Positions 223 to 46,597 of a stretch of DNA of 64,000 bases are shown one piece after another (the first letter of the stretch is position 1; the number at the start of each line of letters is the position of its first letter). A model generated the notes under the pieces. That model was given only the letters and a program-made list of their open reading frames with translations. It made no database searches and was not told the origin of the DNA. The position numbers and the translations under genes were made by a program. Source of the stretch: Holophagales bacterium (GTDB taxonomy: Bacteria; Acidobacteriota; Thermoanaerobaculia; Multivoradales; Multivoraceae); assembly GCA_009845425.1 (NCBI GenBank), contig VXZQ01000014.1, positions 207,783 to 271,782 of the forward strand, in the 5' to 3' direction.

Positions 223-465
223 CTACTTCTTCCCGTACCTGCGCTGGAACTTCTCGATCTGGCCGGCGCTGTCGACGAAGTGCTGGCGTCCCGTGTAGAA
301 GGGGTGGGACGCGGAGGAGATCTCGAGCCGGATTTCGTAGTGCTCGACGCCGTCGATGTCCCGGGTCTTCTCGCTCGTCATCGTCGACTGGGAGATGAAC
401 TCGGCATTCGCGGACGGGTCGATGTACACGACGGGGTGCAGCTTCGGATGGATATCGCTCTTCAT
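223..465 (-). CDS. rpmE2: 50S ribosomal protein L31 type B (cysteine-free, non-zinc paralog)
   Basis: MKSDIHPKLHPVVYIDPSANAEF...SSASHPFYTGRQ...FQRRYGKK has no CxxC zinc-ribbon cysteines and fits the YkgM-type L31 pattern. Start taken at the internal Met of ORF 223..549. Confidence 0.85.
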   Translation of the reverse strand: MKSDIHPKLHPVVYIDPSANAEFISQSTMTSEKTRDIDGVEHYEIRLEISSASHPFYTGRQHFVDSAGQIEKFQRRYGKK

Positions 466-550
466 GGTGTTTCTCGCTCGGGTTGGGCTCAGGAGGGCGG
501 ATACCGCGACGCCTCCGAGGGCGGGTGATGATAACTGAATTATCGTCACC

Positions 551-3142
<2,592 letters not shown>

Positions 3143-3246
3143 CTGCGTCACCTTGCGCGGTGTTGAGGCGCGGAGCCCGGGAAGCTCCGGCACGGCTGCG
3201 GAGTGTAGCGCCAGGTCCGGCCGCATCTCCGCTACCATCCAAGCTC

Positions 3247-4383
3247 ATGGATCCGCTGCACGAACAGATGAGGTCCTGGCGCCGGGACTTCCACCGACAC
3301 CCCGAGCTCGCGTTCGAGGAAGTAGAGACCAGCCGCAAGGTGGCGGCGCTGCTCGAGTCGTTCGACGGCATCGAGGTCCACCGCGGCCTCGCCGGCACGG
3401 GCGTCGTCGGCGTGCTGAAGTCCGGCTCGTCGGAGCGCAGCATTGCACTCCGCGCGGACATGGACGCGCTGCCGATCGAGGAGGAGAACGAGTTCGAGCA
3501 CCGCTCGCGGAACCCCGGCAAGATGCACGCCTGCGGCCACGACGGCCACACGGCGATGCTGCTCGGAGCGGCGAGGCACCTGAGCCGGAACCGGACCTTC
3601 GACGGCACGGTCTACTTCTTCTTCCAGCCCGCGGAGGAGAAGGACGGCGGCGCCCGCGTGATGATCGAGGAGGGCCTGTTCGAGCAGTTCCCTGCCGAGG
3701 AGGTCTACGGCGTTCACAACTACCCGGGAATGGAGGTCGGCAACTTCGGTCTGTGCGCCGGGCCGCTGATGGCCGCGATCGACGTGTTCGAGTTCGCGGT
3801 GACCAGTGCCGGCGGCCACGCTGCCTTCCCTCACGGCACGGTCGACCCGATCCCGATCGGGGCCGAGATCGTCCTCGCCCTGCAGACGATCGTGGCCCGC
3901 AACGTGGACCCGCTGCATAGCGCGGTGATCACGGTGGCCCGTGTCCATGGCGGTCACGCGGACAACGTGATCCCAAGCCGGGTCGTTCACGGCGGCTGCG
4001 TCCGGGCGTTTCTGCCCGAGGTGCAGAAGCTGGTCGAGCGGCGGATGCGCCAGATCGGCCGCGGCATCTGCACCGCCCACGGCGCCGGCTTCGAGTTTCA
4101 GTACCGCCACTACTACCCGGCCACGGTGAACCACGCCGACCAGACCGAGAAGGCGGCCAACGCCGCCCGCGAAGTCGGCAAGGAGGTCACCACCAGCCTC
4201 GCCCCCGTGATGGGTTCCGAAGACTTCGCCTACATGCTCCAGGAACGCCCCGGCGCCTTCATGTTCCTCGGCAACGGCGAAAGCGCCGGCCTGCACACCC
4301 CGCGCTACGACTTCAACGACGACGTCCTGCCCATCGGCATGCGCTACTGGACCACGCTCGTCGAGACGCAGTTGTCCGCGTAG
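3247..4383 (+). CDS. M20 family amidohydrolase (N-acyl-amino-acid / hippurate hydrolase-like)
   Basis: PELAFEE...HACGHDGH...M20D peptidase motifs. Start at the ATG at 3247 (MDPLHEQ); upstream ORF extension is low-complexity. Confidence 0.85.
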   Translation: MDPLHEQMRSWRRDFHRHPELAFEEVETSRKVAALLESFDGIEVHRGLAGTGVVGVLKSGSSERSIALRADMDALPIEEENEFEHRSRNPGKMHACGHDGHTAMLLGAARHLSRNRTFDGTVYFFFQPAEEKDGGARVMIEEGLFEQFPAEEVYGVHNYPGMEVGNFGLCAGPLMAAIDVFEFAVTSAGGHAAFPHGTVDPIPIGAEIVLALQTIVARNVDPLHSAVITVARVHGGHADNVIPSRVVHGGCVRAFLPEVQKLVERRMRQIGRGICTAHGAGFEFQYRHYYPATVNHADQTEKAANAAREVGKEVTTSLAPVMGSEDFAYMLQERPGAFMFLGNGESAGLHTPRYDFNDDVLPIGMRYWTTLVETQLSA

Positions 4384-4400
4384 CGTCGTCGGTATCACCC

Positions 4401-4582
4401 GCCCGGCACGGGGCCGCAGGGGGAGGGGTTCCCTGCGGCCGTTCGCGCTCGGTCGGATGATGGGCAGTGGGCGCTCACTTCACTCCGCTCGCTTCGGTTG
4501 GTCGGTGCTTGCCGTCAGGTCGCCGGGAGTCGCTCGCTGCGAGCCCGCAGGGCACCCCTCCCCCTGCGGCCCCGTGCCGGGC
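4401..4582. repeat. Large hairpin: 36-bp near-perfect inverted repeat (4401-4436 / 4547-4582) with a ~110-nt spacer
   Basis: gcccggcacggggccgcagggggaggggttccctgc at 4401-4436; its reverse complement gcagggcacccctccccctgcggccccgtgccgggc at 4547-4582 (35/36 match). Lies 18 bp downstream of the M20 gene stop. Confidence 0.8.
4435..4481. repeat. Left terminal inverted repeat (~47 bp) of the putative cassette
   Basis: gcggccgttcgcgctcggtcggatgatgggcagtgggcgctcacttc; its reverse complement is found at 7060-7106 with 2-3 mismatches. Confidence 0.8.
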
Positions 4583-4987
4583 TGGACCTCGTCGGGCTTC
4601 GCGCGCTCCTCTTGTGCTTGCGGTGCGGTGACCGCGATCCGGGCGCGGGTGGCTGTCTCTCGGTGGGATCCTTGTTCTCTCACGGACGCTTGACCACCGG
4701 CAATCCACTGACGGCCGGACACCTGCACGGTGGTCGGGTCACCTGCGGTGCGTTCTCGTGCGGACGACCCGCCTGCTGCGCCCGGGTGGCGCGGTCCCAG
4801 CGGGCTCGGTGCGAGCGGCGCTCGCCTCCCTTCAGAAACCAGAGTCCAACCGACGTGAGAGTCGCTCCGCAAGGGAATCGAAGAGCCTAGCGTCGTAGCG
4901 TCAGGAAGCTGGTAGAAACGGCTGTGCGGGTTCTTATGCCAAGCCAGCACACAGAGAACAGAAACGAGAACGGGGGAGGATGGCCGG

Positions 4988-5410
4988 ATGGTGAATCTAC
5001 TCAGAGAGCGGGGCTGGTTTCGAGACGTGGCTGCGGACAAGCTACTCCTCGAGACGGTTGAAGGCTACGGCATGGTGCTGGAAGCGAAGCTCGCCGACAT
5101 GGCCGAGGAGTACGCTGAGCTAGAGCCACTGGGGAACGCGGACGGTATGCTGCAGAGCTGGTGGGAGGGCGTTGAGGAGTTGATCGAAGCTGGCTTGGTC
5201 CGCAACAAGGCTCCCAAGGAGTATGCGTTGACACATGAGGGCCGAGTTCAACTCCACAGTCTTCGGGCTTCCGAGAAGCAGCAGAAGAGCTTGGAGCAGC
5301 AGCAAAGGAGCTTGGAACTTGGTCTGAAACGGCTAAGCGTGGCTCTCTGGGCTCTCGGCGCGAGTGCTCTCTTTGGGTTGCTAAACATCGCTTTACAGTG
5401 GATGGACTGA
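4988..5410 (+). CDS. Hypothetical protein, helical with C-terminal transmembrane anchor
   Basis: 140 aa. GGGGAGGA Shine-Dalgarno 7 nt upstream of ATG 4988. C-terminal hydrophobic helix LSVALWALGASALFGLLNIAL. Located in the low-GC segment. Confidence 0.55.
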   Translation: MVNLLRERGWFRDVAADKLLLETVEGYGMVLEAKLADMAEEYAELEPLGNADGMLQSWWEGVEELIEAGLVRNKAPKEYALTHEGRVQLHSLRASEKQQKSLEQQQRSLELGLKRLSVALWALGASALFGLLNIALQWMD

Positions 5411-5432
5411 ACGGTACGCGGGGATCCCCCGT

Positions 5433-5451
5433 CCGGCCCCGGAACGGGGCC
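5433..5451 (+). terminator. GC-rich stem-loop downstream of the 4988-5410 ORF
   Basis: ggcccc-ggaac-ggggcc (6-bp GC stem) about 25 nt after the stop codon. No U-tract, as is common in high-GC genomes. Confidence 0.25.
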
Positions 5452-5829
5452 AAAGGGACTCGGCTAGCTGACGAAGCAGGCGCGTCTTCGGGGTCAGCTC
5501 GCTCGTCTCGTCGAAGCCATGTGCAGTCCTCGCGTCCCTGAGCCTCCGATCCCTTGATGGATGCCGGGCCCGTTGTCACAGAGGCTGCGCTTGGTCTCCC
5601 ATGTTCGCCGCGTCCACGGAGCTGTTCTGGCTGTTGACCGAATCCTGTATGCGGCGGCGAGCCGACTCAGGGCTGCATGCCTGTGTGTGACGGCGACCGC
5701 AAAGCAGACCACGGGAAGCCCATAGCCAGATGACGATTCCCGGATGGCGCTATGATGCGTTGCCTCGCCGGCACGCCTAGCCCGGATGGCGAACCGCACT
5801 AGACACCGAATGCGCGTGGAGTAAGCACT

Positions 5830-6879
5830 ATGCCGCGTCTCTTCGTCCTCATGCCCTTTTCGCCGGACCTCGAGCCCGTCTATGAGCGCCTCTTCAAAGA
5901 GCCATTCGAGAAAGCTGGTTACGACGTGAGCAGGGCGAAGGACATCGACAGCCAGCGGAACATCCTTGAGGACATTATTGAGTCTGTACGGGATAGCGAT
6001 CTGATACTAGCGGACCTTACAGACTTGAATGCCAATGTGTTCTATGAACTAGGAATCGCACATGCCTTCGACAAGAATGTGGTTCTAGTCAGCCAAGAGA
6101 TAAGTAGCTTACCTTTCGATCTGCAATCCTACCGCGTCGTTCGCTACAGCACCAGCTTCACCGAGATGGAAGAAGCCGTCCAACACATGGAGGACCGTGC
6201 GCGGAAGATCATCTCCGGCGGGATGAAGTTCGCCAATCCAGTTGCGGACTTCGCGGACTCGGTGGCTTCACCTTTCGCGGAAGCGGAAGAGGAGGACGCT
6301 CCAACTGAAGAGGACGAGGACGAGCGTCGCGGCATTCTGGACTTTCAGGCTGACTTCCTAGAGAACGTGGAAACCCTCGGAGCCCTGGTTGGCGACGGCA
6401 CCAAGCGAATTGAGGGTATGAGCGAACGCGTTTCGGCTGCCAACGAACGCATCACGGGAGTCGAGTTCGGCCAGCCTAGTCGGCAGCGTCGGACGATTCG
6501 GGACCTGGGATTCTCCCTGGAGAAAGACGCGGCATGGTTCAAGGACTTCGGTAGCAGATACTACGATGTGCTGGCGGAAGTAGAAGATGCTGTCGTCGGA
6601 ATGTTCAGCACTAAGAGGCACCTTGATGGGGAGAGCCGGGAGGAGTTGATTCTATTCATAGATGTGACGGAGAAGACAGAAAGCCAACTCTCGGATGCAG
6701 CGGCCAATTTCCAGAGCCTGATAGCGGCGATTGACGGAGTGCCGAAGATCGAGCGCAGGTTTGACCGAGGCAGTCGTGCACTGGCAAGAGAGCTTGAGAC
6801 CTACATAGACAACATCGAGTTGTCGATTGCTGTCATAACGAGATCAAGAAACCTGGCCAAGAAGATGTTGGGTGACTAG
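5830..6879 (+). CDS. DNPH1 (Rcl) / nucleoside 2-deoxyribosyltransferase-like N-terminal domain fused to an acidic linker and a ~190-aa helical domain of unknown function; candidate nucleotide-targeting defense effector
   Basis: N-terminus ...LILADLTDLNANVFYELGIAHAFDKNVVLV...PFDL... parallels the DNPH1 core (VVAEVTQPSLGVGYELGRAVALGKPILCL) including the catalytic-type YELG Glu. Acidic linker EAEEEDAPTEEDEDE. Lowest GC in the window (~47%). Confidence 0.6.
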   Translation: MPRLFVLMPFSPDLEPVYERLFKEPFEKAGYDVSRAKDIDSQRNILEDIIESVRDSDLILADLTDLNANVFYELGIAHAFDKNVVLVSQEISSLPFDLQSYRVVRYSTSFTEMEEAVQHMEDRARKIISGGMKFANPVADFADSVASPFAEAEEEDAPTEEDEDERRGILDFQADFLENVETLGALVGDGTKRIEGMSERVSAANERITGVEFGQPSRQRRTIRDLGFSLEKDAAWFKDFGSRYYDVLAEVEDAVVGMFSTKRHLDGESREELILFIDVTEKTESQLSDAAANFQSLIAAIDGVPKIERRFDRGSRALARELETYIDNIELSIAVITRSRNLAKKMLGD

Positions 6880-7059
6880 GGACTGGCCCGAGCAGTCGGC
6901 TTGGGGCGGATTGGGAAGACCGGGTTCTTGTCGCCGGACGGGCCAGCCTGACTGTCTGAGACTGGTGTGTGTTGGGGGAGCAGTTTGGAGCGCTCCCTGG
7001 CCGTTGTGCGCCGAAGGTGCGTGCGATCTTCGCCACTTCGGCACACGCAGAGGAAGGAA

Positions 7060-7106
7060 GAAGTGAGCGCCCACTCCCCATCGTCCGACCGAGCGCGAAC
7101 GGCCGC
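7060..7106. repeat. Right terminal inverted repeat (~47 bp), reverse complement of 4435-4481
   Basis: gaagtgagcgcccactccccatcgtccgaccgagcgcgaacggccgc; followed (7107-7140) by a degenerate copy of the 36-bp hairpin repeat. Confidence 0.8.
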
Positions 7107-7169
7107 CTGGGACCGCGCCCCCCGGACTCTCGGCAGGCGGGTGCTACTACCGCCGCTGCGCCGTCGGTG

Positions 7170-8075
7170 CTACGCGCAGTTGCAGAGTTCGATGAAGAAG
7201 GCGCGGACGGTGTCGAGGAACTCGGGAGAGCTCAGGGTGGTCATGTGGTTGGCGCCTTCGATGACGTGGAGGCGGTGCTCCTTCATCACGTCGACCAGGG
7301 CGTCGGCGTTGGGCTTCAGGGGATCGTCGCTGCCAATGATGTTGAGGGTCGGCACCTTGTTGATGCGGAGGAGTTCGGCGTTCACGTCGAGGGCGGGCAT
7401 GCCGCGGACGACGGCTGCCAGGGCCATCTGGTCGTTCGCGGCGACCATCGCCTGGCCGATCGCCTGAACCTGTTCAGGGGTCGGCGGTTCCTCGCCGGGC
7501 CACAGGAACTCGACGAGAGGGCCGCCGCCCTTTCCCGCCTCGAGGGAGGCGGCCAGCGCGTCGAACATCGCGTCGTCGCGCAGTTCGGGGCTCGGCCAGC
7601 CGGCGCCGCCGACCACGGCGGACATGAGCCGGTCAGGTGCCAGGGCGACGAGCTTCATCGTGATGAAGCCACCCATCGAGTAGCCGACGACGTGGGCCTG
7701 CTGCAGCCGCAGATGATCGAGCAGGTCGACGACGTCCAGAGCCATCCGTTCGCCGTAGCTCGCGGGGTCGTGGGGCTTGCCGCTCATGCCGTGGCCGCGC
7801 TGGTCGACGGCGATGACCTGGAACTCCTCGGCCAGCCGGCCGATGATGCCGGCGGCGCCCCAGTTCGAGGCGGCGGTGCCGGTAATGCCGTGAAGCAGCA
7901 CGACCGGGTCGCCGCGGCCTTCGACGACGTAGTGGATCTCGACGCCGTCACTGGCCGTGAACGACCGGGTCGAGGCTTCGCCTTGCGCGTGAGCGCCGGC
8001 GAAGGCGACTGTGAGCACTAGCGCCGCCAGGACGGCAGCGAACATCGACCGCGGTTTCTTCGTATGGATCATCAT
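7170..8075 (-). CDS. Secreted alpha/beta hydrolase
   Basis: Signal peptide, HG oxyanion box (VVLLHG), nucleophile elbow GYSMGG. Start chosen at MMIHTKK (8075). Confidence 0.8.
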   Translation of the reverse strand: MMIHTKKPRSMFAAVLAALVLTVAFAGAHAQGEASTRSFTASDGVEIHYVVEGRGDPVVLLHGITGTAASNWGAAGIIGRLAEEFQVIAVDQRGHGMSGKPHDPASYGERMALDVVDLLDHLRLQQAHVVGYSMGGFITMKLVALAPDRLMSAVVGGAGWPSPELRDDAMFDALAASLEAGKGGGPLVEFLWPGEEPPTPEQVQAIGQAMVAANDQMALAAVVRGMPALDVNAELLRINKVPTLNIIGSDDPLKPNADALVDVMKEHRLHVIEGANHMTTLSSPEFLDTVRAFFIELCNCA

Positions 8076-21752: not shown

Positions 21753-23819
21753 TCAAGGCAGCGCGAACGCCATCAACTCCGGCACGCCGTCCGTATCGCG
21801 CCTGCCGGCGACCGTCAGCGCGATGTACTGCTTGCCTTCCCAGAGGTAGGTCATCGGCGTGCCGAGCCCGCGCGCCGGCAGCGGCACCTCGGCGATCACG
21901 TCGCCCGTCCGCTTGTCCCGGGCGACGAGGCGGTTGCCGCCATCGTCGTCCGGCGCGTGCTGGCCGTGGATCAGCAGGGTCTTCGTCAGCAGCGGTCCGG
22001 TGTAGGTGTCGCCGCCGAGCGGGGGAAGGTCGAGGTCCTTCAGTCGAGGGTGGTTGCGCAGCGTGTCGTTGGTGCCGAGCGGCTTCATCCACACGTGCTC
22101 GCCGGTGAAGAGGTCGATCGCGGTCATCCGCGTGTACGGGGGCTTGAACAGGGGCAGACCTTCCGGCATCGCGGGACGCCGGCCGCGGCCGCCGTGGGTG
22201 TAGCGGAGGGTGCCGCCTTCTAGCGGGTCGGGCGTGTAGAACGTGACCATGCTGAACGCGTTCCGCGACGGCACGTAGAGCCAGCCGGTCTCCGGATCGA
22301 CCGCGGCGCCGTACCAGTTCGCGCCACCTCCGGCTGACGGACGGAAGATCGTGCCCCGCTTGCCGCCGGGTTCGGGCAGGGACGGCGGCGTGTAGAGCGG
22401 CCCGATCCGGTAGTCCTTGATGACGTCGAGAGCCATCTGTCTGATCTCGGGCGTGAAGTCGGCCAGGTCGTCTTCAGTCACGCCCTGGTACTCGAACGGC
22501 GCTGGCTTCGTCGGGAAGGGCTGGGTGGGAGCCGCCGTGTCGCCGGGCATTGTCGCCGGGGGCACCGGCCGATCCTCGATCTCCCAGACCGGGTCGCCCG
22601 TGACGCGGTCGAAGACGTAGAGGAAACCCTGTTTGCTGACCTGGGCGACGATCTGTCGGGAGTCGGCGCCGTCGCGGCCCGGGAGGTCGATCAGGGTCGG
22701 TGCGGCCGGGAAATCGTAGTCCCAGAGGCCGTGGCGGACGGCCTGGAAGTGCCAGAGCTTCTCTCCCGTCTCGACATCGACGGCGACCAGGCTTTCGGAG
22801 TAGAGGTTGTCGCCGGGCCGGTGGCCGCCGTAGAAGTCGTTCGTGGCGGTGCCGATCGGCAGGTAGACGATGCCGTTCTCGTTGTCACCCGAGAGCATGG
22901 TCCAGACGTTCGCGTTGCCCGAGTACCGCCAGGACTCGTCCTCCCAGGTCTCGACGCCCTCGTCGCCCTCCTGGGGCACGGTGCGGAACACCCACCGAAG
23001 CTCGCCGGTGCGCGCGTCCCAGCCGCGCACCCAACCGGGTATCGACTCCCTGGTGATCCGGCGGTCGGCGATCGAGGCGCCGGTGACGACGACGTCCCGG
23101 ACCACAACCGGCGGCGACTGCATCGAGTAGAGCAGGGCGTTCAGGTAGTCCCGCTCGCCGCGGTTCGCGCGCGGCAGGTCTTCCATCAGGTCCACCCGGC
23201 CGCCGTCTCCGAAGTCCTCGTTCGGGCGGCCGGTACGGGCATCGACCGAGAGCAAGTAGCCGTCGCCAGTGCCCCAGTAGACGCGACTGTCCGCGTCGTC
23301 GCCTTCCTCTCCGTTCGTCCAGTACGCGACGCCGCGCTGGTTCCAGACCACGGTCATCGTCGTCGTGCCGCTTTCGTAGCTCTTCGGGTTGTACGCCCAG
23401 ACCGTCCGGCCGGTGCCGGGGTCGACCGCGGCACCGATCGAGATCGGCGTGTTCAGGAACAGCAGTCCCTCCTGCATCAGCGGCGTCGCCTTCAGGTTGC
23501 GGATGAAGGGAGCGCGGCCGGCGCGCCAGAGCAGCGGATCGTCGTCCTTCAGCCGGCTGAAGATGACGTCGCGGTCGGCGTACCACTCGCCGCCCGCCTC
23601 GGACTTGCTGAGGAAACCGTCGACCGACCGCCAGCGCCAGGCGACCTCGAGTTCGCCGAAGTTCGTGGCGTCGATCTGATCGAGCGGCGAGTACTTGGTC
23701 GACCCTGTGTCACCGCCGTAGCTCGGCCACTCGCCGGCCGGGGCGCCGCGCTGGGCGGCGGCCGGGGCGGCGAGCAGCAGGGCGACCAGGCCGCCGGCGG
23801 CAATCGTCGTTCTGGGCAT
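21753..23819 (-). CDS. PQQ-dependent dehydrogenase (quinoprotein alcohol/glucose dehydrogenase family), secreted
   Basis: Signal peptide, then GEWPSYGGDTGSTKYSPLDQI...LEVAWRW... PQQ beta-propeller repeats. Start at MPRTTIAAG (23819). Confidence 0.85.
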   Translation of the reverse strand: MPRTTIAAGGLVALLLAAPAAAQRGAPAGEWPSYGGDTGSTKYSPLDQIDATNFGELEVAWRWRSVDGFLSKSEAGGEWYADRDVIFSRLKDDDPLLWRAGRAPFIRNLKATPLMQEGLLFLNTPISIGAAVDPGTGRTVWAYNPKSYESGTTTMTVVWNQRGVAYWTNGEEGDDADSRVYWGTGDGYLLSVDARTGRPNEDFGDGGRVDLMEDLPRANRGERDYLNALLYSMQSPPVVVRDVVVTGASIADRRITRESIPGWVRGWDARTGELRWVFRTVPQEGDEGVETWEDESWRYSGNANVWTMLSGDNENGIVYLPIGTATNDFYGGHRPGDNLYSESLVAVDVETGEKLWHFQAVRHGLWDYDFPAAPTLIDLPGRDGADSRQIVAQVSKQGFLYVFDRVTGDPVWEIEDRPVPPATMPGDTAAPTQPFPTKPAPFEYQGVTEDDLADFTPEIRQMALDVIKDYRIGPLYTPPSLPEPGGKRGTIFRPSAGGGANWYGAAVDPETGWLYVPSRNAFSMVTFYTPDPLEGGTLRYTHGGRGRRPAMPEGLPLFKPPYTRMTAIDLFTGEHVWMKPLGTNDTLRNHPRLKDLDLPPLGGDTYTGPLLTKTLLIHGQHAPDDDGGNRLVARDKRTGDVIAEVPLPARGLGTPMTYLWEGKQYIALTVAGRRDTDGVPELMAFALP

Positions 23820-23926
23820 GTCGGCCGCCAATCGTACCGATACGACACCCACTGGGTGCGCTGGCGTCTTCGCCGGCATCCGCCGGAGGCGGAATCCGGC
23901 TCTCCGCCCGGCGGCTATGCTCCCGC

Positions 23927-44532: not shown

Positions 44533-44611
44533 GAGGAAGTGCCTTTCGCTTTGGTGGTGTTCGAGTGTGCGTTAGGTTAGCGCACTCGTGACGAACGCGA
44601 AGGTCAGTTGG

Positions 44612-46597
44612 ATGTGCGTGTTTGCGGCGGCGCTGGTCGGTTTCGTCGCCGGCGCCGCCGGGGCCGAGACCGGCGAGCAGGGTCGCTCCGTCTACGGCGA
44701 GTGGCGGCATCACGGCGGCGACCACGCCTCGAGCCGCTACTCGCCGCTGACCCAGATCGACGGTTCGAACTTCAGCCGGCTCGAGGTCGCCTGGCGCTGG
44801 CGCACAGCGGACCACGAGGTGCCGCTGGACGTGCTTCCGGGCTACGACACGGGGTTCTATCGCTCCGTTCCCTTGATGATCGGCGGCCGCCTGTTCGCAC
44901 CGACCAGCCTGGGCCAGGTCGCCCTGCTCGACCCGGCGACTGGCGAGCAGGAATGGGTCTACAACCCGAAGACCTGGGAGCGCGGCGGCACCACGATGCG
45001 GCCGGTCGGCGCTCGCGGCATCGAGTACTGGTCGGACGGCGAGAAAGAGCGCCTGTTCGTCGCCACGATCGGCCGCCAGCTCGTCTCGATCGACGCCGCC
45101 ACCGGACTGGCCGACCGCGCGTTCGGCGAGGATGGCGTGGTCGACCTGGCGCAGGATCTGGGGCCGGGCGACTACGCGATCCGCCACGTCACGCACGGCG
45201 CGCCGCCGATCGTCGTCGGCACCAGCGTGATCGTCGGCTCGAAGATCTTCGACTACTCGATCAGGAGCGACGCACCGCCCGGCCATGTGCGTGCCTACGA
45301 CGTCCACACGGGCGAGTTCAAGTGGCGCTTCAACACGATTCCCCGGGACGACGAGTACGGCGTCGAGACCTGGGAGAACGAGTCCTGGCGCACGGCCGGC
45401 AACGCGAATGTGTGGACGTCGATGAGCGCGGACCACGAACTGGGATACGTCTACCTGCCGACCAGCACGCCGTCGAACGACTACTACGGGGCCGACCGGC
45501 CGGGCGACAACCTGTTCGCCGAGAGCCTGGTCTGCGTCGACGCGGAGACGGGCGAACGCATTTGGCACTTCCAGACCGTCCGCCACGGCATCTGGGACTA
45601 CGACATCGCTTCGGCCCCGAACCTGCTCGACATCGTCGTCGACGGCAAGCTGATCAAGGCCGTCGCGCAAGTCTCGAAGACCGGCTTCACGTACGTGTTC
45701 GACCGCGCCACCGGCGAGCCGGTGTGGCCGATCGAGGACCGGCCGGTGAATCACAAGTCGACGGTGCCGGGCGAGAAGCTGTCAGAGACGCAGCCGTTCC
45801 CGACGAAGCCACCTGCCTTCGAGCGGCAGGGCGTCAGCGAGGATGACCTGATCGACTGGACGCCGGAACTGCGCGAAGAGGCACTGAAGATCGCGGAGAA
45901 GCTGGTGCTCGCGCCCATGTTCCCGCCCCTGATCGTCAAGGGTGAGGGCGGCAAGGAGGGCGTGATGGTCGTCCCGGGGGCCGCCGGTGGCGCGAACCAC
46001 CCCGGAGCGTCCGTCGACCCGAGGACCGCTGTGCTCTTCGTCGAGTCGCAGAACCGGCCCACCGGGATGTCGCTGATCGAGCCGGATGCGGCGCGCCGTC
46101 CGGACTGGCGGTACGTGATCGACTACGTCGACACGGGTGGGCCACAGGGCCTGCCCCTGACGAAGCCGCCGTACCGGACGATTACCGCGATCGACCTGAA
46201 TCGTGGCGAGCACCTCTGGCGCATCCCTGTCGGTCCGGGCCCGAAGAACCATCCGGCCATCGCTCACCTGAACCTCGGCGACATGGGCACGATCTACTTC
46301 GGTATGCCGGCGGACGGCGGTCTGCTCGTCACCCGCACGCTCCTGATCGGCTTCGTGGCCCTGCCCGACGAGGACAATCCCCGCACCAGCAGCGGCGGGC
46401 TCCTGCGCGCCTACGACAAGGCGACAGGCGAACTGCTCGCCGAAGTGAGAACGGACGTCTGGCTGCACGGCCCGCCGATGACCTACATGCATGAGGGCCG
46501 GCAGTACATCGTCATCGCCGGGGGCGGCGCCCGCAATCGCCGGATCCCCGATGAGTTGATCGCCTTTGCGTTACCGGAGTCCCCGACCGATGCTTAA
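44612..46597 (+). CDS. PQQ-dependent dehydrogenase (paralog of 21753-23819), secreted
   Basis: Same signature as the first copy (GEWRHHGGDHASSRYSPLTQI...LEVAWRW). Start at ATG 44612 after the signal-peptide Met. Confidence 0.85.
   Translation: MCVFAAALVGFVAGAAGAETGEQGRSVYGEWRHHGGDHASSRYSPLTQIDGSNFSRLEVAWRWRTADHEVPLDVLPGYDTGFYRSVPLMIGGRLFAPTSLGQVALLDPATGEQEWVYNPKTWERGGTTMRPVGARGIEYWSDGEKERLFVATIGRQLVSIDAATGLADRAFGEDGVVDLAQDLGPGDYAIRHVTHGAPPIVVGTSVIVGSKIFDYSIRSDAPPGHVRAYDVHTGEFKWRFNTIPRDDEYGVETWENESWRTAGNANVWTSMSADHELGYVYLPTSTPSNDYYGADRPGDNLFAESLVCVDAETGERIWHFQTVRHGIWDYDIASAPNLLDIVVDGKLIKAVAQVSKTGFTYVFDRATGEPVWPIEDRPVNHKSTVPGEKLSETQPFPTKPPAFERQGVSEDDLIDWTPELREEALKIAEKLVLAPMFPPLIVKGEGGKEGVMVVPGAAGGANHPGASVDPRTAVLFVESQNRPTGMSLIEPDAARRPDWRYVIDYVDTGGPQGLPLTKPPYRTITAIDLNRGEHLWRIPVGPGPKNHPAIAHLNLGDMGTIYFGMPADGGLLVTRTLLIGFVALPDEDNPRTSSGGLLRAYDKATGELLAEVRTDVWLHGPPMTYMHEGRQYIVIAGGGARNRRIPDELIAFALPESPTDA

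Follow-up and report, generated by a model that had tools for sequence, protein, structure and literature searches.

A low-GC cargo near the centre of a hairpin repeat unit in a convergent intergenic gap of a sponge-associated acidobacterium

We analysed a 64,000-nt stretch of a Holophagales bacterium genome (GCA_009845425.1, contig VXZQ01000014.1, positions 207,783 to 271,782; hereafter the window), which belongs to a sponge-associated acidobacterial lineage, and found that 2.8 kb of foreign DNA between two convergent core genes is a genuine recent insertion into a terminator-like hairpin. The inserted cassette is built from a repeat unit that we call E, a hairpin of ~190-250 nt in which complementary arms of 28-41 bp surround a conserved interior; the repeat family is apparently undescribed. 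Two such units lie at the site: E1, which is intact and free of cargo, and E2, which is inverted relative to E1 and is split near its centre by a low-GC cargo carrying two genes. At a probability of about 45%, we favour a reading in which E is a non-autonomous family similar to miniature inverted-repeat transposable elements (MITEs) and mobile insertion cassettes (MICs), mobilised in trans, with loaded alleles that then spread by homologous recombination.

The repeats had been noticed in an earlier reading of this DNA made from its letters alone (the sequence-only reading), which reported a 47-base block with an inverted copy matching at ~44/47 bases. By our measurement an inverted copy of the core at 4435-4481 stands at 7060-7106 and differs from it at two positions (45/47 identical), and in a gapped alignment the match extends to a 104-nt inverted repeat (4378-4481 versus 7060-7161, 80%) that nearly spans to the stop codons of both flanking genes (4383 and 7170). 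The 36-bp repeat that the same reading found inverted nearby proved to be a pair of 41-nt arms (4398-4438 and 4545-4585), which are 95% complementary and lie 106 nt apart. An extra, degenerate copy of the arm, missing from its list, is located at 4767-4800 and pairs with 7107-7142 at 83%. Repeat comparisons and searches with an E profile revealed no further copies of either repeat in the window.

The E profile was built from seven units and searched with nhmmer. It matched the window three times, once as a full unit on the plus strand and twice as minus-strand halves that are separated by exactly the low-GC cargo. E1 occupies 4376-4603 on the plus strand (profile positions 4-226, E-value 1e-51); it contains the two 41-nt arms, and its interior holds the 47-nt core. 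It is followed by a spacer of 162 nt (4604-4765, 67% GC) without a profile, Rfam or repeat match, and then by the inner end of E2, the 3' half, on the minus strand at 4766-4862 (profile positions 110-210, E-value 2.6e-7), which includes the degenerate arm at 4767-4800. Beyond the 2,196-bp cargo (4863-7058, plus strand), the outer end of E2 is its 5' half at 7059-7162 on the minus strand (profile positions 5-107, E-value 2.6e-17), with the inverted 47-nt block and a degenerate arm. E2 is one inverted unit (4766-7162) split near its centre by cargo. The composite terminal inverted repeats of ~80 bp proposed by the sequence-only reading do not form the ends of a single element: the profile search resolves them into the 5' halves of two separate, oppositely oriented units of ~200 nt.

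Base composition sets the cargo apart from everything else in the window. Mean GC is 68.4% (standard deviation 3.0% in 500-nt windows), and the cargo, at 58.5% with minima of 50.7% in a 300-nt window and 54.4% in a 500-nt window, is the sole stretch below 62%. Codon usage follows the same pattern, with a GC content at third codon positions of 0.66-0.70 in the two cargo open reading frames (ORFs) versus 0.89-0.94 in the flanking genes. A drop in GC between the repeats had been reported before, and for the cargo it is real; from the left repeat to 4862, however, GC stays at 67-75%, and the low-GC part begins only at ~4863.

Could the repeats be chance matches or an artefact of assembly? This is already refuted, and we leave it next to no probability. 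Shuffles of the window gave 0 matches to the 47-nt core, and homologous E units are present in other genomes. The cassette has an identical architecture in the NCBI metagenome-assembled genome GCA_009838785.1 (contig VXQW01000013.1), in an ENA re-assembly and in Logan contigs (SRR9841431, SRR9841440); since these independent assemblies and sequencing runs agree, an assembly artefact is excluded. Nothing speaks in its favour; the contig of L009 does stop within the arm, as is expected of a short-read assembler at a repeat.

Related loci were fetched through orthologues of the downstream hydrolase gene (73-94% identity) together with their neighbourhoods. At no fewer than 12 of them (L026, L028-L030, L033, L034, L036-L041 and L054) the cassette is absent and 31-37 nt lie between the two convergent genes; these bases form a GC-rich terminator-like hairpin, for example CGGCGGCGGCGGG-AAC-CCGCCCGTGCCGCCGCCG. 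The closest relative, L054, is among the empty loci, with flanks 94-96.6% identical to the window; taken together, the closest relatives L054 and L026 are both empty, and their flanks are 93-96.6% identical. None of the relatives carried the same two cargo genes at this site without the repeats. These comparisons of syntenic loci, which the sequence-only reading had proposed, bear out its view of the segment as something added to the gap.

The same site holds other DNA in other relatives. In L027 and L031 it contains a 10-kb island of about ten ORFs, in which (L027) neither Pfam nor PADLOC detected a recombinase, and in L021 it contains a different low-GC sequence that runs up to the contig end. 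The flank adjacent to the island in L027 is 98.4-99.7% identical to those of the empty loci L028-L030, and the hydrolase protein is the same in all four. Since near-identical flanks occur with and without the island, gain or loss at this site is recent. Identity between the flanks of L027 and L028 (469-10876) is mosaic, being 99.3% beside the site and then 95.4% and 92.2% further outward, and this pattern indicates frequent homologous recombination among these symbiont populations. For spread by homologous recombination of the flanks, the evidence here is no poorer than for active transposition.

The 104-nt inverted repeat, which consists of two E 5' halves, might also mark an invertible segment. 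Its 47-nt core is 96% identical, and in L021 an arm of the E1 type is joined to a core of the E2 type and to a cargo end like that of L027 but oppositely oriented, as a crossover in the core would yield. These features would suit a switch that works by inverting the 2.6-kb interior, which we nevertheless regard as very unlikely. The L021 pattern is an inference drawn between species, while a single orientation is seen in 5/5 independent contigs of this population. There is no adjacent invertase, the neighbours being leucyl-tRNA synthetase (LeuRS), M20 peptidase, hydrolase and PhyH genes, and with both cargo genes having their own start signals, flipping would not be obviously consequential.

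E2 is broken cleanly after ...GCGCTCACTTC. The break (CACTTC|ACTC) is located 10 nt from the palindrome centre, in a predicted unpaired linker between inner helices, and the identical break point is found in L021 and in L027/L031, which hold different cargo. In addition, the 5' half of E2 in the window is 92% identical to the matching end of the different 10-kb island in L027. A fixed break of this kind would be expected if E were a folded-DNA site, comparable to attC/attI, for a hairpin-recognising recombinase encoded elsewhere, with cargo entering at the single-stranded centre. The position of the break, its recurrence with three different cargoes (window E2, L021 and L027), the retention of arm complementarity without retention of arm sequence, as in attC, and the small, promoter-proximal and defence-like nature of the cargo are all consistent with such a site. 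However, ~20 nt past the break are common to L021 and L027, turned opposite ways with respect to the flanks, and the window shares only 4 nt, so that one ancestral event followed by cargo replacement would suffice. At the loci L016 and L023, described below, cargo lies between intact units and not inside one. Furthermore, the attC boxes R'' (RYYYAAC) and R' (GTTRRRY) were found on neither strand in 4360-4620 or 7040-7175, the units are inverted and not direct, and no integrase is nearby. We consider a hairpin site of this kind improbable. Much the same low probability attaches to its broader form, in which E units would be the recombination sites of an undescribed cassette system of Multivoraceae-like Acidobacteriota, with an enzyme, encoded by the host or by an element, that would recognise the long hairpin by its shape and its conserved inner blocks, insert or exchange defence cargo at the single-stranded hairpin centre and install units in terminator hairpins after core genes; such a gene-capture platform would differ from integrons and from the known IS families.

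Comparison of the units defines E more closely. Its 5' end reads GGCGTCGG-N(3-6)-CA-CCCGCC and is followed by an arm of 28-41 nt. Next come the conserved interior, in which the blocks GGCCGTTCGCGCTCGGTCGGA, GCGCTCACTTCACTnCGCTCGCTCCGGTT and GTCGCTCGCTnCGAGCC stand, and the arm complementary to the first; the 3' end has the form GGGCTGG-ACGTCGCCGG. The bases that precede the arm vary (TATCA, ACGCA, TTGCA, CTACA, GAACA). Units of the short type have 106-107 nt between the arms, and those of the long type have ~70 extra nt made up of two small perfect hairpins. Over 4378-4609, the window is conserved at 75-78% identity in the units of L014, L016 and L023. A small perfect palindrome, GGTGGCGCG-N3-CGCGCCACC, belongs to the extra module of the long type (L016 708-728 and 3187-3207; L023 1088-1108 and 3083-3103); one copy is found just outside an E unit in L016, and the window has none.

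Arm sequence varies between copies, while complementarity within each copy is retained, at 92-97% in six intact units, ~81% in the unit E-a of L023 and 83% in E2. Compensatory double changes were seen in 13/36 outer-stem pairs, a number that 0/500 shuffles reached. By a manual count, the mismatches of the outer stem comprise ~13 A-C and ~12 G-U pairs; because the two are about equally frequent, the outer stem carries no sign of selection on the RNA of one strand alone. The inner helices show either no change or only change compatible with G-U pairing, too little variation to separate an RNA role from a DNA role. In one of them 7/13 pairs show one-sided variation, and in the sense strand each of these is still a standard or a G-U pair. 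E1 has a fold energy of -146.8 kcal/mol (z=-7.3). Searches of 4200-7300 against Rfam 15 gave no matches at E<=1 except one spurious long non-coding RNA match, a search for tRNA and tmRNA found none, and L014, L016 and L023 had no Rfam match at the gathering score.

To find E elsewhere, genomes (one per species) were scanned with an exact 20-mer from the 47-nt block, which about half of the known units keep. The scan gave 14 matches, 10 of which were chance single matches in unrelated taxa, and the remaining four (L014, L016, L021 and L023) were real. L014, L016 and L023 are metagenome-assembled genomes of 'Candidatus Multivorans' (Acidobacteriota, Thermoanaerobaculia), in which E occurs several times per locus. 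In L016, units at 450-666 (plus strand) and 3022-3313 (minus strand) bracket cargo encoding a 73-aa DUF7387 protein and a 476-aa protein, with GC down to 53%. L023 has a unit at 986-1269 (plus strand) and two on the minus strand, at 2564-2787 and 2919-3210, and its cargo encodes a DUF4238 protein. In both, the cargo is located between two intact inverted units. In L014, one plus-strand unit stands after a peptidase gene at the edge of an island that encodes a DNA methylase, a RelA/SpoT-domain protein and a T5orf172 protein and extends past the fetched stretch. The suspicion that this repeat family marks more cassettes was therefore well founded, as E brackets other low-GC cargo in other genomes.

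Four chromosomal contexts of E are known from these loci: the M20/hydrolase gap, a position after an M28 peptidase gene, the interval between moaA and idi, and that between a beta-lactamase-like gene and topoisomerase VI. The 5' end of E points outward at every E-carrying island boundary, and in most cases the stop codon of a core gene lies 5-25 nt ahead of the unit, with gene and unit in the same orientation. The exception is one unit of L016, which stands upstream of the divergent idi gene; because of it, we attribute the outward-facing rule to the cassette and not to the neighbour gene. In each complete Multivorans chromosome the exact 20-mer matched only one locus. E appears to be a low-copy, cargo-associated element and not the ubiquitous REP-like repeat that the sequence-only reading had named as one outcome that would overturn its proposal. 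Four scans of viral contigs gave nothing related to E, and E1 had no BLAST match among plasmid and phage records. The single two-anchor match of a metagenome scan, the unrelated contig L032 (JGI Ga0210095_1024841), was treated as chance, as the E profile fails to recognise its hairpin. This hairpin, at 97-251, has 28-nt arms around a GGCCGTTCGCGCT...TGGGCGCTCAC motif, and a second strong palindrome is located at 404-470.

Given where the units stand, E might not move at all. It could be a strong bidirectional terminator or insulator, or a structured RNA, that borders cassettes exchanged only by homologous recombination, in the flanks or between E copies, and it would keep read-through out of both the cargo and the convergent genes around it. 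The very stable hairpin of E1, the likewise GC-rich terminator-like hairpin of the native empty site, and the 5' ends that face the incoming core genes at most boundaries all fit a border of this kind. So do the one-sided changes in the inner helix, all of them compatible with standard or G-U pairing in the sense strand, the mosaic flank identity, and the fact that neither a target-site duplication nor a transposase was found. However, a consensus scan of 4300-7300 for promoters and terminators gave 0 sites and detected no U-tract terminator, no Rfam family matches, A-C mismatches are about as common as G-U ones in the outer stem, and the L016 unit upstream of idi is not behind a stop codon. 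A non-mobile border would also leave unexplained the identical unit architecture at four unrelated chromosomal sites, and the splitting of E at a central point that stays the same across several cargo contexts. We regard it as possible, but on balance unlikely.

The cargo encodes two ORFs on the same strand, as had been reported, with Shine-Dalgarno sites (GGGGGAGG and GGAG) 7-8 nt before the ATGs. ORF1 (4988-5410, plus strand, 140 aa), which is called as a gene in all assemblies, has a weak, sub-threshold winged-helix match (HTH_45, E-value 0.044) and a hydrophobic C-terminal segment; PADLOC and NCBIfam gave no match. ORF2 (5830-6879, plus strand, 349 aa) combines an N-terminal fold of the nucleoside 2-deoxyribosyltransferase/DNPH1/TIR-like type with a C-terminal bundle of four long helices. 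It matches PF05014 with an E-value of 1.5e-5, under the Pfam cutoff, and the PADLOC TIR effector model PDLC00733 with an E-value of 1.8e-8. Its AlphaFold model has a pLDDT confidence score of 85.5, and the best Foldseek matches of this model were nucleoside 2-deoxyribosyltransferases, DNPH1, MilB and the SPARTA TIR domain, with template-modelling scores of ~0.6-0.75 on the target. Full-length homologues of ORF2 are widespread (30-54% identity), and the nearest ones (51-54% identity) are located in restriction-modification/AAA_21 islands that lack ORF1. The matches of fold and profile are weak but agree with one another; ORF2 is probably a defence-type effector, and a defence-type function of the cargo as a whole is likely. 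The two ORFs are separated by 419 nt (5411-5829, 65% GC) in which there is no convincing ORF and no RNA-family match.

No transposase, integrase or recombinase lies inside the cassette, in agreement with the sequence-only reading: Pfam and PADLOC found none there, searches of ORF1 and ORF2 with Pfam, PADLOC and NCBIfam gave no transposase or integrase, and no recombinase or integrase gene is present among the genes within ±10 kb of the cassette. That reading had gone on to propose a non-autonomous cargo element, or a cassette moved in trans. The part that stands is a true insertion without a recombinase of its own; a target-site duplication could not be defined, and neither a trans-acting enzyme nor an autonomous partner was found.

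In the MITE/MIC-like reading that we favour, E1 would be an empty, MITE-like unit and E2 a loaded, MIC-like unit in the opposite orientation, with two defence-type passenger genes. Both units would have entered the former terminator-like hairpin of 31-37 nt with their 5' ends outward. An enzyme encoded elsewhere would move E units, or would have moved them in the past, by recognising the arms and the conserved blocks, and loaded sites would then be passed from one strain to its relatives through homologous recombination within the core genes on either side. In this reading, too, the two E 5' halves that make up the 104-nt inverted repeat could recombine with each other and flip the interior. 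E shares with MITEs and MICs the presence of terminal inverted repeats at both unit ends, the lack of an internal transposase, the empty units being non-coding, copies at unrelated sites and presence/absence polymorphism.

A number of observations weigh against this proposal. When both junctions were compared with seven different empty-site sequences, and the flanks of all units were inspected, no consistent direct repeat was seen that could represent a target-site duplication. In the window, L016 and L023 there is no direct repeat outside the conserved ends; CGTCGG-like motifs are found on both sides, and because they are present in all copies they belong to the unit. Neither an autonomous element with E ends nor a candidate transposase was detected in the ~0.6 Mb profiled, in plasmids, in phages or in viral contigs. 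We found no E beside homologues of ORF2 elsewhere and saw no instance of the same cargo carried with E to a second site. The low copy number of E is unusual for MITE-type elements, and the island of L027 has an E half at one end only. In addition, E begins with ~25-35 nt that look like the hairpin of the empty site (compare CGGCGTCGGCGGAACCCGCCCGCA of L033 with the 5' end of unit E-c in L023, GGCGTCGGCGGCTACACCCGCCCGCA), which makes the outer boundary of E ambiguous, and the 'empty' sites could conceivably be footprints instead of naive targets. Active transposition is thus a step that we infer, given that neither a target-site duplication nor a trans-acting enzyme nor an autonomous partner came to light.

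The cassette fills the gap between two convergent core genes, which Pfam identifies as an M20-family peptidase/amidohydrolase and an alpha/beta hydrolase, as the sequence-only reading had supposed. The gene order is LeuRS (551-3238, minus strand), the M20 gene (3247-4383, plus strand; PF01546, E-value 2e-48; stop codon 4381-4383), the cassette, the hydrolase gene (7170-8072, minus strand; PF00561/PF12697; stop codon 7170-7172) and a PhyH-family dioxygenase gene. In the gene calls of independent assemblies the M20 protein has 378 aa. The NCBI annotation places its start at 3121, overlapping the start of the divergent LeuRS gene. A start at 3247 (MDPLHEQ...) is given by other calls and yields the shorter form, which is shared across assemblies.

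Several further features were recorded in the window and at related loci. Long-range inverted similarities connect 21800-23900 with 44600-46550 (204 nt at 77%, 140 nt at 71%, 109 nt at 72%, and others); these are probably paralogous genes in opposite orientation, ~22 kb apart. Relatives carry other variable insertions near the locus (L029 14960-20425; L039-L041 12177-20906), all without E. One of them is a DNA methylase/NOV_C/Vsr/HATPase island after the L31 gene, and another is a block of DUF8196, UvrD-like helicase and MZB beside the M20 gene, at the usual place of LeuRS. An IS110-family transposase gene is present at L027 1-384, 10 kb from the site, with no adjoining E unit. The idea of E as a bridge-RNA-like guide for an IS110 enzyme was considered and dropped: by eye there was no complementarity between the variable loops of E and the target, and no E stands beside the transposase.

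If E cassettes are actively moved, uncultivated sponge symbionts would shuffle defence genes without the need for a recombinase in each cassette, and a structurally unusual non-autonomous element, a long, low-copy hairpin that carries cargo near its centre, would be added to those known. As a compact marker, the E profile can help to find cassettes of accessory and defence genes in this lineage. Between the M20 peptidase and hydrolase genes lies a defined natural hotspot whose alleles are empty or loaded with different cargo, and it lends itself to population-level study. If E is a mere border or terminator, the locus would be a clean, well-bounded small defence island, but an ordinary one.

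E can be compared with several known systems. The pdif sites of Acinetobacter plasmids are 28-bp XerC/D sites at which host enzymes move modules. Like pdif modules, the cargo described here is free of a recombinase and bounded by inverted sites; unlike them, E is a ~200-nt hairpin on an acidobacterial chromosome. The attC sites of integrons, and of clusters of attC sites lacking integron integrases (CALIN), are imperfect palindromes in which structure is conserved over sequence, and they accompany small, promoterless-looking accessory cassettes. E is similar in that its structure is more conserved than its sequence and in its association with small accessory cassettes, but its units are inverted instead of direct, are much longer, and no integrase was found.

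Repetitive extragenic palindromic (REP) sequences are 20-40 nt long, occur tens to hundreds of times per genome and do not bracket cargo; they and REPINs go with REP-associated tyrosine transposases (RAYTs). In common with REPINs and the REP-containing bacterial interspersed mosaic elements (REP-BIMEs), E is a hairpin-forming extragenic palindrome found after genes, with a stem kept by compensation. In contrast to REPs, it measures 190-250 nt, is low-copy, and is found beside accessory cargo at every locus recovered. We rejected an assignment to the REP/REPIN class on account of this unit length, the lack of further copies in the window, the single locus matched by the exact 20-mer in each complete Multivorans chromosome and the lack of a conserved tetranucleotide before the arm.

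Pairs of MITEs that flank cargo are known from integron mobilisation units and from MITE-flanked class 1 integrons in Acinetobacter. The Acinetobacter-type pairs have defined ends of an insertion sequence (IS) family and target-site duplications, and they are found on plasmids of Proteobacteria. At L016 and L023 the arrangement is like that of composite MITE pairs, in that two inverted, small non-coding repeats bracket the cargo, whereas defined IS-family ends and target-site duplications could not be shown for E. MIC231 of Bacillus cereus is a mobile insertion cassette derived from IS231. Another example of a mobile insertion cassette is the qnrS2 MIC with MITE structure in Aeromonas plasmids (PMC5444012). 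E differs from MICs and MITEs in that its arms lie within a single hairpin of ~200 nt with conserved interior blocks, in that arm sequence varies while complementarity is kept, in the lack of a target-site duplication or a cognate IS and its occurrence at about one locus per genome, and in that elsewhere its cargo sits between two whole inverted units. It shares with them inverted-repeat ends, the lack of a transposase, empty and passenger-carrying versions, presence or absence in relatives, and a presumed mobilisation in trans. The locus fits no IS family, and of the systems compared it operates most like mobile insertion cassettes and MITE pairs.

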